Assembly (NCBI GenBank): GCA_964610875.1
Contig: CAZSWP010000014.1
Coordinates: 16,863 to 80,862, forward strand
Reading direction: 5' to 3'
Source: an uncultured archaeon
GTDB taxonomy: Archaea > Asgardarchaeota > Thorarchaeia > Thorarchaeales > Thorarchaeaceae
DNA length: 64,000 nucleotides
Both the position numbers and the translations under genes were made by a program. Below the pieces are notes generated by a model that saw nothing but the letters and a program-made list of their open reading frames with translations, had not been told where the DNA came from and made no database searches. Numbering within the stretch: position 1 is the stretch's first letter; each line of letters opens with the position of its first letter. Shown here piece after piece: positions 3 to 55,830 of the stretch.

Positions 3-1340
3 TATGGTGGAAAGCTTATCCTTGTTTTTGATGATACTATCGGCTCTGCAGAAAAACAAGTTGAACCTGAAGCATTTGACTTAATTCCTGAGGGTCTAGA
101 GTATCTTGGTGTAAAATGGCATGAAACTGTATACAAAAGCGATAGGATGGACCTGTTCTATGATTATGCTGTAGATTTAATCAAGAAAGAAGAAGCCTAT
201 GTTTGTGATTGCGATGCTGGAGTCTGGCGGAATAAACACAAAGTTTTGGGTATCCCTTGCAGTTGTCGGGGCCTGTCACTTGACGAGAACCTAGAACGAT
301 GGGAAAAAATGCTTGATGGTTCTTATGAAGAAAAAGAAGCTGCAGTTCGTTTGAAGACCGGAATGGATGACCCTGATCCAGCAATGAGAGACCATGTGAT
401 CCTTAGAATATCTGAGACCGATCATCCCCGCGTTGGCACGAAATATCGAGTATGGCCTCTCCTAGAGTATTCATGGGGTATTGATGACCATGAACTCGGT
501 GTGACACATATCATTCGAGGAAAGGACCTAGTTAAAGAAGGGAAGATTGAGCAACATATTTGGAATATTTATGAATGGAAACATCCTGAACTCATCTACT
601 ATGGTCGTCTTAAATTCCAAGATGCCACTCTTAGCAAAAGCAAGTCGCGGAAAGAAGTTATGTCCGGAATGTATTCTGGGTGGGAAGATCCACGTACATG
701 GAGTATACAGTCATTGGAACGAAGAGGTATCCATCCAGATGCTGTTAGAAAAGCCATGCTTGATTTGGGATTGAGCATTGTTGATATCTCAATATCCATG
801 AAGAGCGTCTACTCTGAGAATAGAAAGCTTCGAGATGCTGATGCAATTAGATTCTTCTTTGTTCAAAACCCTGTATGGGTTGAACCTACTGGACTTCCTG
901 AAGATGTATCTTCAGCTGAGGCTCCAATGCATCCGGACTTCCCAGAGAAAGGTGTTCGTACGATTCCATTGATTAGAGATAAAGGGTTTGAACTTGGAAT
1001 TGCAACTAGGGATTATGAGAGGATGGAGTTAGGATCACTATTCAGATTGAAGGACTTGGCTAATTTTACTCTTATTGGCAAAACACCTCCCAGACTTGAA
1101 TTCCACAGTTTGAGTGTGGATGACGTTAGAAACGCTGGAGGGTCTATTATCCATTGGGTGCCTAAACAAAATGGAGTTCCTATAGATCTTGTGCAAATTG
1201 ATGGCACTATCGAAACTGGAATTGGTGAACCCGCTTTAGCTGATGTTGCTGAGGGTACGTTCTTACAATTCGAGCGTGTTGGTTTTGCCAGAATCTTTGA
1301 AGTTGGGGATACTATCAAGGCAGCTTTTGCGCACAAATGA
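3..1340 (+). CDS. gltX: Glutamyl-tRNA synthetase, archaeal type (5'-truncated by the window edge)
   Basis: Open frame from nt 3 (YGGKLILVFDDT...). Zn-knuckle YVCDC..CSCR, GVTHIIRGKD, KMSKS-equivalent LSKS, GWEDPR, and C-terminal anticodon-binding beta-barrel motif QFERVGF. Confidence 0.96.
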   Translation, partial: YGGKLILVFDDTIGSAEKQVEPEAFDLIPEGLEYLGVKWHETVYKSDRMDLFYDYAVDLIKKEEAYVCDCDAGVWRNKHKVLGIPCSCRGLSLDENLERWEKMLDGSYEEKEAAVRLKTGMDDPDPAMRDHVILRISETDHPRVGTKYRVWPLLEYSWGIDDHELGVTHIIRGKDLVKEGKIEQHIWNIYEWKHPELIYYGRLKFQDATLSKSKSRKEVMSGMYSGWEDPRTWSIQSLERRGIHPDAVRKAMLDLGLSIVDISISMKSVYSENRKLRDADAIRFFFVQNPVWVEPTGLPEDVSSAEAPMHPDFPEKGVRTIPLIRDKGFELGIATRDYERMELGSLFRLKDLANFTLIGKTPPRLEFHSLSVDDVRNAGGSIIHWVPKQNGVPIDLVQIDGTIETGIGEPALADVAEGTFLQFERVGFARIFEVGDTIKAAFAHK

Positions 1341-51164: not shown

Positions 51165-51212
51165 AATTCACATCATTCTAGAACACTCATCATTTGAGCT
51201 TCTTAAATTCAA

Positions 51213-51243
51213 TCCAGAGTGATAAAACTCCATTCACTCTGGA
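51213..51243 (+). terminator. Hairpin after the RIO operon
   Basis: TCCAGAGTGA / TCACTCTGGA perfect 10-bp stem followed by CCTTCTTCT. Confidence 0.6.
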
Positions 51244-51350
51244 CCTTCTTCTATGCATCCTGAGTACTATTGTAAACATAATAGTTTTAATAACCGATAT
51301 AATGCTCCCATTGATTCTCATTAAACAAATTATCTAGGACGGATATCCTG

Positions 51351-52436
51351 TTGAATACCAGTCATAACCATTATCGTATTGAACAATTCACATTTTCAAA
51401 ATCCCAGATTCCTGAACTGAGTTCTCTTATTGCAGATGCTTTTGTCGATCATGGTAGGAATGAAGGTGGCACTATTGCTTTCGATGAGGACACATTCCGT
51501 TTGAAGTTTGATTCGCCCATACGTGATTCAAATGTGTACATTCGTGCAGTCCATGAGCCTACTAGTGAGATTGTAGGGTTTCTTGGAGGTGTTGTTCGCC
51601 ATACCTATATTGAAGGTGAAAAACACAAGATTGGTGCTCCAGCTTGGATTGCTGTAAGGCCTGACCATCAAAGGAAAGGTATTGCCAAGCAAATGGGTAT
51701 CGAACTTATGAAGGCTGGTTTAGAGCTTGGCTATCATGGAGGTCTTGGCACATTTGAGCCGGAAGCACATGGAATTGACACTGCGATGTCAATTGCAAGA
51801 GACTATAATCTCGTTTCAAAAGAACTAGTACGAATCAATAACTTTGTTATCAGAGTTTACGATGCATATGCTGCTGCTCGTGCAGTAAGACTCAAGTCTT
51901 ATGAAAAATGGGGATTAAGACTTATTCAAGGTATAAGGAAAGTCGATAACCCGCAAGTGAGAGAATTCGAAGAAACGGACGCAGCTAGAGTTTATGAATT
52001 GACAAATGATTTCATTGAACGAAATCAAATTGCCTTTGTAAGAGAGAAAGATGAATTCATGTGGTTTTTGAAGCAGAAACCAGTAAACTGCGTTGTTCAT
52101 GAAGACTCGACTGGTGAAGTGGATGGTTTCTTGATTGCATGGGAGCATCTGCTTGGGGGTATTGGTGAATTCATTCCAGCAGGTTGGTTAAGTCATGTCC
52201 ATACTCATCGATTAGAAAAGAGTGAGGCGATAAATCTGGTTCGATATTTGGACCTCAAGTCCCATGAACGAGGTTGGCTCGGAATTCAGTCTCCGTATAT
52301 CCCCTATTTTGACGCAGAACCATTCAAGAAGTCTCGTTATCAATTCTACAAAAAACAACTACTGATTACTCTTTTTGCTACTCGAGATGTAGATATGCCC
52401 GACCAAATATCAAGCATCTATTATGACTACGAATAG
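51351..52436 (+). CDS. Tandem-GNAT acyltransferase resembling N-myristoyltransferase
   Basis: GNAT motif A IAVRPDHQRKGIA; second GNAT domain VREFEETD...VVHEDSTGEVDGFL. Confidence 0.8.
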   Translation: MNTSHNHYRIEQFTFSKSQIPELSSLIADAFVDHGRNEGGTIAFDEDTFRLKFDSPIRDSNVYIRAVHEPTSEIVGFLGGVVRHTYIEGEKHKIGAPAWIAVRPDHQRKGIAKQMGIELMKAGLELGYHGGLGTFEPEAHGIDTAMSIARDYNLVSKELVRINNFVIRVYDAYAAARAVRLKSYEKWGLRLIQGIRKVDNPQVREFEETDAARVYELTNDFIERNQIAFVREKDEFMWFLKQKPVNCVVHEDSTGEVDGFLIAWEHLLGGIGEFIPAGWLSHVHTHRLEKSEAINLVRYLDLKSHERGWLGIQSPYIPYFDAEPFKKSRYQFYKKQLLITLFATRDVDMPDQISSIYYDYE

Positions 52437-52540
52437 AAATTCTAGTAACGAGCCAAATAAGGAGTCTTGAAAACATCATATCCAAGGGATACTCTGTCCC
52501 ACAGACTCCTTAGGGTACGAGGGACAGTGTGCGACTAAGC

Positions 52541-52957
52541 CTAGGATACTTTCCTGAGAACTACCTTTGAAACGCCTGGGATTTTCTGCAGGCTTTCTTC
52601 AAGTTCTTTCAGAGTGATTACTAATTGGTCAGGTACGAAATAGCACTCGTAATAGCACTTCTCGCCTCTAAGGCATACGCCGGTTGTGAATATGATGTCG
52701 CTTAATTTGGCATCATTGAATGAGAAGTTAAGTTGCTTGAGGAAATTACGTGAAAGATCACTAATCTCAATTCTCAGAAGATAGATGTCATCTGAGGCAA
52801 CTGGGAATATTTTCATCACACGGTCTTTATGGTGAAGAACTGTCAAGGCAGCTTTCTCCTTAATGTCCGCTACGAATTCAGCCGGGAACTCCACTGGCTT
52901 TCCCGGGGTTAAATGAAGTATGATTGCTGAGGTCGCACCCTCTCTGTCCGGTACCAT
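52541..52957 (-). CDS. Hypothetical protein with ACT-like C-terminal half
   Basis: 138 aa; beta-alpha pattern ending LEESLQKIPGVSKV; CLRGEKCYYEC. Confidence 0.65.
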   Translation of the reverse strand: MVPDREGATSAIILHLTPGKPVEFPAEFVADIKEKAALTVLHHKDRVMKIFPVASDDIYLLRIEISDLSRNFLKQLNFSFNDAKLSDIIFTTGVCLRGEKCYYECYFVPDQLVITLKELEESLQKIPGVSKVVLRKVS

Positions 52958-53141: not shown

Positions 53142-53858
53142 TTGAGAGATTTGCATCCTAGAATTTTACAGCTTGTTGGAATTGTTTTGCTTGTGGTTTG
53201 TGCAGCAATGACTTGGATCGTATATGATAGCACATTAGCAGTAGGTGGTGACCCATCTATACTACTAACCTCAGGAATTGTGGCTTGGGGCATTCTTGCA
53301 CTACCTGAATTGATAATTGGTCTGTGGTTACTCGCAAAAGGTACACGTGAAGCAAGGATTGGAGACGTATCTGGGAATTTGATAAAGCTCGTGCAAGAAG
53401 AAGGTCGTATCAGTGTGGATGCAGCTGCCAAAAAACTAGGTGCAGAACCAGAAGATGTTGTAGATGCAGCTGAAAAATTAGAGCGAAAACGTTTACCCTT
53501 GGTCTATGTTGATAGGCGCAGAAATGAGATAGTCAGTCCGAGAGCAGTAGAACTCAAGGAGAGTATTCTCCATCTTATGTTCGCACAGAGAAGAATGAAG
53601 TTCAGTCAAATTGCTGAGGTAACTGAAGCTACTGAGGAGCAGATTATTGAAGCTCTTAAAGAACTGTCCAAAGAAGGTAAATTCCGTGGTGTTATAGATG
53701 AGAATTCCAGAGTTATTTATACAAAAGAAGCAGTAAGTCAGATGCCCAAAGCTGTCACCGCCTGTCCTAACTGTGGTGGAAAACTTCCGAATCCCATCCT
53801 ACCTGGGGAAGAAGAAAACTGCCCGTACTGTGGTCATGTGATTACTAACAAATTGTGA
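53142..53858 (+). CDS. Membrane protein: 2 TM, two winged-helix (PCI-like) domains, double zinc ribbon
   Basis: Two TMs; GRISVDAAAKKLG; MKFSQIAE...LSKEGKFRGVIDE; CPNCGG...CPYCG. Confidence 0.75.
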   Translation: MRDLHPRILQLVGIVLLVVCAAMTWIVYDSTLAVGGDPSILLTSGIVAWGILALPELIIGLWLLAKGTREARIGDVSGNLIKLVQEEGRISVDAAAKKLGAEPEDVVDAAEKLERKRLPLVYVDRRRNEIVSPRAVELKESILHLMFAQRRMKFSQIAEVTEATEEQIIEALKELSKEGKFRGVIDENSRVIYTKEAVSQMPKAVTACPNCGGKLPNPILPGEEENCPYCGHVITNKL

Positions 53859-55104: not shown

Positions 55105-55830
55105 TTATTCATGAATTTCTGAATCTGGACCCTCAATGGATACTTGTGCACTATTCAAATCAGCTTCAACTAATTTCTCTACAAACTCAGGTTTTGCACA
55201 TCTACGCCCATTCGTGATTAGATTCATCCGGAGACCTCGCTCTCTACCATAAGCTATCAGTTCAAAGAGGTCATCTCGTAAGGTCGGCTCTCCACCGGTA
55301 AAGGAGAGACTTGGTACATGTGCATCATCAACGAGAATGTCAATCACTCGTTTAATATCCTCCGTACTCATCTCGCCGGACTCTCTATGAGGTGAGTATG
55401 CATAACAAAAACGACATGCATTGTTGCATCTGTAAGTGACTGCTATCTCACTCAAAACGGGATATCTAATCTCCCCCTCTCCGAAAGGGAGTATTTTTGC
55501 TGTTCTATAAGTGTAAATATTTTGATTACCTGATATCATATTCTGCAGGTCAAAGACGAATGCTGCAAGGTCATTCAATACCTTTTGTTGTGCAACGCTA
55601 TGATTTGTTTCAAAGAATTCTGTTACTTCTTGAGGTGATTTTCCATCAAGTAACATTTGTAGCATCATTTGTGCAGTCTGGTTCAGATGCATTACCTTGT
55701 TTGGTCTGAGGATTAGTAGATTGTCTTCTGGTCTTACGAAGAAGTAATCCTTCACCTCACTCATGAATCTCTCTACCCAGCTGAGATCCTCAATGGTATA
55801 GTTGTATACTGGTTTCGTAATTCGAACCAC
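55105..55830 (-). pseudogene. PqqD/RRE-fused radical SAM enzyme, 3'-truncated
   Basis: N-terminal RRE-like LNQTAQMMLQMLLDG..EV..F...V..DL; CNNACRFC, FTGGEPTL, ITNG. The ORF stops at QVSIEGPDSEIHE, mid-barrel, and I saw no continuation in the 95-bp gap before the next gene. Confidence 0.78.

Follow-up and report, generated by a model that had tools for sequence, protein, structure and literature searches.

An N-myristoyltransferase-type double-GNAT gene in a Thorarchaeota genome belongs to an uncharacterised prokaryotic family of which it is an atypical, acquired member

The stretch of DNA analysed here (the window) comprises 64,000 nucleotides of an uncultured Thorarchaeota genome (GenBank assembly GCA_964610875.1, contig CAZSWP010000014.1, positions 16,863 to 80,862) and contains, at positions 51351 to 52436 of the forward strand, a gene for a 361-residue protein that is a remote homologue of eukaryotic N-myristoyltransferase (NMT). 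The protein belongs to an uncharacterised prokaryotic family, in which this copy is atypical and acquired. We consider it probable that the gene product is an intact N-acyltransferase, dependent on acyl-coenzyme A (acyl-CoA) and NMT-type double-GNAT in class, and that the gene, laterally acquired by one Thorarchaeota lineage, has evolved fast since. NMTs have been reported as limited to eukaryotes, and NMT-type double-GNAT structures as occurring in archaea and bacteria (PMC12219266, 2025). A literature search found no paper joining N-myristoyltransferase with Asgard or Heimdallarchaeota. Coordinates of the gene and its features are collected in Table 1.

When the gene product was searched alone against Pfam, it matched Acetyltransf_9 (PF13527, E 2.5e-7, residues 17-119) and generic GNAT families in its first half, and the lone sequence had no significant match in the PDB. 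A word-indexed search returned 56 homologues of about 360 amino acids with 38-51% identity over 98-100% of the length, their source labels being Lokiarchaeia, Promethearchaeota, Sigynarchaeota, Hodarchaeota, Heimdallarchaeota and 'Smithella', and phmmer, run exhaustively against 1.84 billion representatives, yielded 48 clusters only. In an alignment of 48 members of this core Asgard and bacterial family (alignment A1), the homologues begin at the same place as the window's protein, which makes its start codon credible, the C-terminus is strongly conserved, and 43 members match PF01233 at E <=0.01, the best at 4.4e-10. In a comparison of the A1 profile with PDB sequences, the only significant matches were to 35 distinct NMT sequences (E 1e-11 to 1e-5), Eis scoring E 0.85, and a single profile alignment crosses both halves of the protein (profile 18-264 on residues 55-286 of Plasmodium vivax NMT, PvNMT). 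In addition, hhalign was used to align A1 with 20 eukaryotic NMTs retrieved with a 68-residue piece of PvNMT (alignment A2), which gave 97.2%, E 4.3e-11 over 224 columns and paired residues 17-264 with PvNMT 81-315. This pairing places F44, P56, F165 and R168 on NMT Y107, P119, Y211 and R214, and the family-invariant R204, D210 and W238 on R254, D260 and W289 of NMT_C, which are themselves invariant or nearly so. Identity to eukaryotic NMT is about 12%. An initial annotation, made from the DNA letters alone, had claimed collinearity with NMT; the peptide stretches that it quoted are all present in the open reading frame, and the collinearity is far above chance in both profile comparisons. That the protein is a true remote homologue of eukaryotic NMT, beyond being a mere tandem GNAT, is well supported.

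The predicted fold leads to the same relatives. An AlphaFold2 model built on A1 reached a pLDDT of 91.3 and a pTM of 0.90, and the top 50 Foldseek matches in the PDB were all NMT (TM 0.74-0.78, E about 1e-20). The model superimposes on 50 NMT entries with Z 30.7-32.2 and a root-mean-square deviation (rmsd) of 2.6-3.0 over ~333 residues. A representative-based structure search, independent of Foldseek, ranked yeast NMT (Z 30.9) and Cryptosporidium NMT (Z 29.7) highest, followed by MAB_4324 (22.0), Pyrococcus 3ddd (19.4), Eis (19.1) and FemA (13.6), so that NMT stands ahead of every other tandem GNAT by 8-9 Z units. Eis, FemABX and other tandem GNATs had been named in the initial annotation as the best matches that would overturn its assignment; they score 19 (Eis), 13-14 (FemA/FemX) and at most 22 (others), against 31-32 for NMT. 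The protein is a double GNAT, as annotated, and eukaryotic NMT is its closest known relative by both sequence profile and predicted fold.

The model also fixes where the chain begins and ends relative to NMT. Residue 3 falls on Hs 151, Sc 74 and Pv 66, and the first ~35-40 core residues of NMT are therefore without a counterpart. At the other end, residue 361 falls on the final NMT residue in 50 entries from 7 species (Hs 496, Sc 455, Ca 451, Af 492, Lm 421, Pv 410), from which it follows that the chain ends where the catalytic carboxylate of NMT ends. In NMT, this C-terminal carboxylate is the catalytic base. The short beta-strand (IYYDYE) that ends the protein according to the initial annotation has a counterpart in the model, where residues 356-358 near the C-terminus are predicted to form a short strand. 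The end point is fixed in 58/58 family members, the 57 others stopping at the same position with Y-x-D/E-W-R, and prokaryotic relatives carry a C-terminal hallmark of their own, Y-x-[DE]-x-R and then a stop.

Several hallmarks of NMT are missing from the family. The patterns E-[IV]-N-F-L-C-x-H-K and K-F-G-x-G-D-G, which we take to be the NMT signatures, were validated on A2, where 19/20 and 16/20 eukaryotic NMTs match them, and neither was found in any of 58 family members or 10 distant relatives. The N-terminal KFWxTQPV segment, which contributes to the myristoyl-CoA site of NMT and whose F30, W31, Q34 and V36 are invariant in A2, was found as a strict pattern in 13/20 eukaryotic NMTs and in 0/58 family members. 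PvNMT N161, T197 and H213, presumably the catalytic and peptide-recognition residues, align to A98, H129 and I167 here and to S, D and I in the family consensus. With the signatures, KFWxTQPV and the catalytic Thr, Asn and His all gone, the protein is not an orthodox NMT.

The family is present in 52/400 Asgard genomes, chiefly in four genome families (f8, 26/31; f13, 12/12; f21, 10/14; f23, 2/4), and the gene was found in 0/85 related genomes of the window genome's own family. In species-representative genomes there are 64 named loci, mostly from Heimdallarchaeota and Promethearchaeota, including Ca. Lokiarchaeum ossiferum B35 and Ca. Harpocratesius; further loci belong to Sigynarchaeum, one Bathyarchaeia and ~10 bacteria (Smithella, Syntrophaceae, 'delta proteobacterium' contigs of up to 5.7 Mb, Leptospirales). 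In the family tree the bacterial copies emerge at least four times within Loki-type diversity, the result of repeated transfer. The bacterial copies lie on large, clearly bacterial contigs (loci L015-L017, L036 for Smithella, L041, L044, L055, L058, L061, L081). The Smithella copy, which has an NDP-forming acyl-CoA synthetase and a 2-oxoacid_dh-like acyltransferase on its flanks, pairs with a Lokiarchaeia sequence as its sister, and the Syntrophaceae copy is sister to that of L. ossiferum. A binning error behind the Smithella label was ruled out, as the contig has Mfd, UvrA, two SurA genes and MoeA. The NMT-like gene is in pieces in two single-contig f8 genomes (G015, C1:1011617-1012705, and G016, C1:1138301-1141232), one of the pair with its middle piece on the opposite strand and the other with two pieces 1.8 kb apart, and contig C78 of genome G081 carries two tandem copies.

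Distant full-length relatives with 20-27% identity (alignment A3) match the core family at E 7e-54 and eukaryotic NMT at 99.1%, E 1.3e-18 over 279 columns, a stronger match than that of the core family itself. In a joint unrooted tree the eukaryotic NMTs form one clan (support 100) on a long branch, and the core family forms a derived clan (support 100) nested among distant prokaryotic lineages. Eukaryotic NMT thus appears, in this unrooted tree, to be neither inside the core family nor its specific sister, and the core family to be a derived branch within a larger superfamily of prokaryotes. The A3 profile found full-length copies in the Asgard families f17, f18 and f19 as well. Weak A3 matches in f22 were considered as hidden NMT-type enzymes and rejected, since they are Eis-type GNATs without an NMT signal; a candidate second NMT-like gene in the window's own genome (contig C12, L001:550-1866, reverse strand, PF01233 at 19.8 bits) is a plain 439-amino-acid Acetyltransf_9 protein of Eis type and of another family. 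In the ESM Atlas, the nearest shapes are bacterial clusters of ~350 amino acids (TM 0.81-0.87), followed by eukaryotic NMT (0.80-0.81) and a compact giant-virus NMT (0.73), and PF01233 is found in 14% of the members of one of these bacterial clusters.

The initial annotation had placed the window in a probable Asgard archaeon, which was right: a neighbouring gene of 138 amino acids is 80-94% identical to metagenome-assembled genomes of Thorarchaeota. Six genomes of the same family share the order MFS, RIO, RIO, winged helix-turn-helix (wHTH), gap, 138-amino-acid gene, DDRGK-like, DSD1 and radical SAM, and in the window this gap is enlarged and holds the NMT-like gene. A misbinned contig was ruled out by flanking genes that are syntenic and 55-92% identical with those six genomes, and a recent transfer by the GC content (0.407) and third-position GC (GC3, 0.32) of the gene, which match its neighbours. 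Because of the conserved synteny and the native GC and GC3, we regard the contig as native and the gene as an old, lineage-specific acquisition. In the family tree this copy groups weakly with basal Loki and Sigyn sequences and has the longest terminal branch in the family (1.03 vs a median of 0.13). It retains 37/43 highly conserved sites, the whole CoA motif included, and its 6/43 deviations are the most in the family; three of them, D281S, W360Y and R361E, affect positions with 100% conservation in all other members. As D281 and R361 have changed together, they may be in contact in the canonical enzyme.

By analogy with NMT, the N-terminal lobe would bind acyl-CoA through its Q-R-K-G-I-A loop, in and around which H106, Q107, R108, G110 and A112 are (nearly) invariant across A1. 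The backbone amides of the W99-I100 beta-bulge would polarise the thioester, as those of PvNMT F162-L163 and of the pair that we take to be its yeast equivalent, F170-L171. The amine acceptor would bind in a cleft made mostly by the second lobe, and the C-terminal end of the chain would reach the active site, where its carboxylate could serve as base. The gene entered one Thorarchaeota lineage laterally, though not recently, and then evolved fast, with invariant C-terminal residues among those that changed. Accessory acylation appears more likely than general co-translational Gly-myristoylation, given that the Gly-recognition parts of NMT have not been kept and that the genes are patchily distributed, stand alone and have often moved between lineages. 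Possible targets are amines of small molecules or peptides, and certain lysines or N-termini of proteins.

Other explanations have to be weighed against an intact NMT-type N-acyltransferase. Resemblance to NMT through mere convergence of an ordinary tandem GNAT (of the Eis, MshD or FemX kind) on the double-GNAT fold would explain why the single-sequence Pfam matches are generic GNAT families and why NCBI labels the homologues 'GNAT family N-acetyltransferase', but we give this almost no credence: 8-9 Z units separate NMT from every other tandem GNAT, the profile-profile comparisons reach E 4e-11 and 1e-18 to NMT over both lobes, the invariant R204, D210 and W238 lie on invariant residues of NMT_C, and real Eis-type GNATs, such as the 439-amino-acid protein of the same genome and those of f22, carry no NMT signal. 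The initial annotation itself saw a possible prokaryotic relative of eukaryotic N-terminal lipidation; read in this way, the protein would be a working transferase of myristoyl or another long-chain acyl group to the N-terminal glycine of Gly2 proteins such as small GTPases. NMT is indeed the closest known relative by sequence and fold and has the same C-terminal end point, and the bacteria that received the gene are syntrophs which degrade fatty acids or alkanes and are rich in acyl-CoAs, an acyl-CoA synthetase being a neighbour of the gene. A candidate substrate also exists in Lokiarchaeia, as the best Arf-family protein of L. ossiferum (L136:1489-2388), a species that has both this GTPase and the enzyme, starts with M-G and continues with an amphipathic helix and, at its C-terminus, a domain of ~120 amino acids; M-G is kept in 24/25 orthologues from three Lokiarchaeial families (L166-L195). 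The ATG of these orthologues often lies 1-2 codons after a stop. Position 6 of the GTPase is, however, I/L/F and not Ser/Thr, and studies of Asgard Arf proteins have found no myristoylation sites (PMC11914678; bioRxiv 10.1101/2024.02.28.582541). Co-occurrence of the Gly2 Arf-like GTPase with the enzyme was examined and not found: in f22, a family devoid of NMT-type enzymes, 36/135 genomes encode the GTPase, whereas f8 and f13, whose genomes commonly to near-universally carry the enzyme, lack the GTPase, as does this Thorarchaeote. Gly2 stays conserved also in lineages that have no NMT-type enzyme. These observations argue against a dedicated enzyme-substrate pair. Together with the 0/58 result for both signatures, the loss of KFWxTQPV and of 35-40 core residues, the replacement of the catalytic Thr, Asn and His, and a patchy family that also occurs in bacteria and is not the sister of eukaryotic NMT, they leave glycine myristoylation very improbable, and the annotated link to eukaryotic N-terminal lipidation is not supported at the level of function. 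A lipid transferase function is at best putative, and for Gly2 substrates it is unlikely.

The protein could instead be an acyltransferase (acetyl, short or long chain) for protein lysines or N-termini, forming a writer-eraser pair with a sirtuin-type deacylase, which we regard as possible though unlikely. Lysines, too, are acylated by eukaryotic NMT, and a sirtuin acts as the eraser. Across 41 loci no conserved operon partner was found, and the best candidate was a SIR2-family deacylase gene lying within 3 kb of the NMT-like gene in 7/41 (L046, L050, L071, L078, L082, L084, L041); two Heimdall subclades have the order NMT-like, tetratricopeptide repeat (TPR) protein, SIR2, and in one deltaproteobacterium the NMT-like and SIR2 genes are directly adjacent. 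These amount to 2-3 independent occurrences, however, with genes that converge and are not transcribed together; on a rough estimate such a recurrence in a rare family is not clearly beyond chance, and no sirtuin lies near the window's copy. A further explanation concerns the Thorarchaeal copy only, which might be inactive, decaying or neofunctionalised, a stray acquisition that has left the family's job. It is the sole copy among 86 genomes of its family, on the longest branch and with the most deviations at conserved sites, those at 281, 360 and 361 included. Against this, the 361-codon frame is intact and ends exactly at the family's end point, 37/43 conserved sites and the CoA motif are kept, the paired D281S and R361E look compensatory and not random, and the composition is fully ameliorated, which implies long retention of the gene; we consider loss or change of function in this copy rather improbable. 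The broadest proposal, that the family members act as protein fatty-acyl transferases in Asgard archaea and in syntrophic bacteria, that NMT-type lipidation predates eukaryotes, with targets such as Gly2 Arf-like GTPases or lysines (and sirtuins as erasers), and that eukaryotic NMT descended from this superfamily, seems a long shot to us.

For the preferred reading, an intact and laterally acquired NMT-type N-acyltransferase, a number of points weigh on the other side. The lone protein matches NMT_C (PF02799, residues 199-260) weakly, at 17.2 bits vs a cut-off of 27.9, and PF01233 at 11.3 bits, under the Pfam cut-off. The changes D281S, W360Y and R361E could mean altered or lost activity. The wider family may be largely bacterial, to judge from shape and feature matches in the ESM Atlas, which are not a sequence census. 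The significance of the finding is lowered because the copy is a singleton, divergent and of lateral origin, because eukaryotic NMT does not have the family, a derived branch, as its sister, and because prokaryotic NMT-type folds have already been reported in general terms (PMC12219266).

Even so, the origin of NMT becomes testable through a prokaryotic family that has its sequence ancestry, its two lobes and its unusual C-terminal end point in common with NMT. The rise of endomembrane signalling is linked with N-myristoylation. The presence of a member in the cultivated L. ossiferum makes expression, acyl-CoA profiling and metabolic labelling feasible.

Table 1. Features of the NMT-like gene and its locus (window coordinates; residue numbers refer to the 361-residue protein).
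Feature	Position	Strand	Basis
Predicted NMT-type double-GNAT acyltransferase gene	51351..52436	+	Intact 361-codon open reading frame, TTG start, TAG stop
N-terminal GNAT lobe, residues ~5-170, presumed acyl-CoA-binding	51363..51860	+	Acetyltransf_9 match; hhalign to PvNMT 81-215; 43/48 homologues match PF01233
W99-I100, on NMT oxyanion-hole pair PvNMT F162-L163	51645..51650	+	hhalign columns; family consensus W-L
Q107-R-K-G110-I-A112, canonical GNAT Q/R-x-x-G-x-G/A pyrophosphate-binding motif	51669..51686	+	Aligned to NMT R170-S-K-R-L-A175
Y128-H129-G-G, on NMT Y-T-A-G	51732..51743	+	Catalytic Thr replaced by H here, by D in family consensus GYDGG
C-terminal GNAT lobe, residues ~200-361	51948..52433	+	R204, D210, W238 on NMT_C R254, D260, W289; weak PF02799 match 199-260
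S281 in place of the Asp of all 57 other members	52191..52193	+	Conserved-site comparison; changed together with R361E
C-terminal tail S-I-Y-Y-D-Y-E	52413..52433	+	Family length kept; Y-E vs W-R in 57/57 other members
Insertion interval, 1,377 bp, wHTH gene to 138-amino-acid gene	51165..52540	.	Empty site of 290-650 bp in six related Thorarchaeota genomes
Hairpin, 9-bp arms, after RIO-RIO-wHTH operon	51214..51242	+	Read from sequence; putative terminator
AT-rich TATA-like elements ahead of the gene	51285-51303	+	Read from sequence; putative promoter

Three genes downstream of the insertion were also noted. The 138-amino-acid protein (window 52541-52957, reverse strand) has no Pfam match and is 80-94% identical across Thorarchaeota, vs 55-70% for its neighbours. 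The gene at 53142-53858 (forward strand), whose synteny is kept across the family, encodes a membrane protein that combines a DDRGK/PCI-like winged-helix region (24.4 bits, under the cut-off) with a C-terminal zinc ribbon. The radical SAM reading frame at 55105-55830 (reverse strand) has 241 amino acids and is truncated in this genome, because related Thorarchaeota have 473-497 amino acids at the syntenic position.

Among known systems, the uncharacterised bacterial GNAT clusters of ~350 amino acids in the ESM Atlas (Aminicenantota, Pseudomonadota, Acidobacteriota) align up to residue 361 with top feature scores of 0.96-0.98, and are related to the family by shape and language-model features alone. 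Eis and other Acetyltransf_9 proteins share the PF13527 N-terminal lobe and the tandem GNAT arrangement, but Eis has a third, SCP2-like domain without an equivalent in the 361-residue protein, and matches less well (Z 16-19, rmsd 5-7, profile E 0.85). The tandem-repeat GNAT MAB_4324 (7q3a) and FemA/FemX likewise have two GNAT lobes in one chain, at Z 22.0 and 12.7-13.6, yet their aligned ranges (3..344 to 3..353) end short of the C-terminal strand of the model. The prokaryotic NMT-type double GNATs described in the HisAT/NAT16 paper (PMC12219266), such as Pyrococcus horikoshii PH (3ddd), have the C-terminus at the active site and are all uncharacterised; its examples, from Pyrococcus, Thermococcus, haloarchaea, one Thorarchaeota and one 'Euryarchaeota' protein, fall outside the present family, 3ddd reaching Z 19.4 vs 31 for NMT. 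Eukaryotic NMT (EC 2.3.1.97; PF01233 and PF02799; e.g. 2p6e, 3iu1, 4b10) has a ribosome-binding N-terminal extension that is absent here and a hydrophobic C-terminal strand, V-G-L-V-L-L, where the family has Y-x-D-W-R and this copy Y-Y-D-Y-E. In contrast to eukaryotic NMT, the family is patchily distributed and neither universal nor essential, and this protein carries the canonical Q-x-x-G-x-A CoA loop that NMT does not. Eukaryotic NMT nevertheless has, like the protein described here, two GNAT lobes in one chain, collinear across the two lobes, and an aromatic-aliphatic pair in the beta-bulge, at the position held here by W99-I100.

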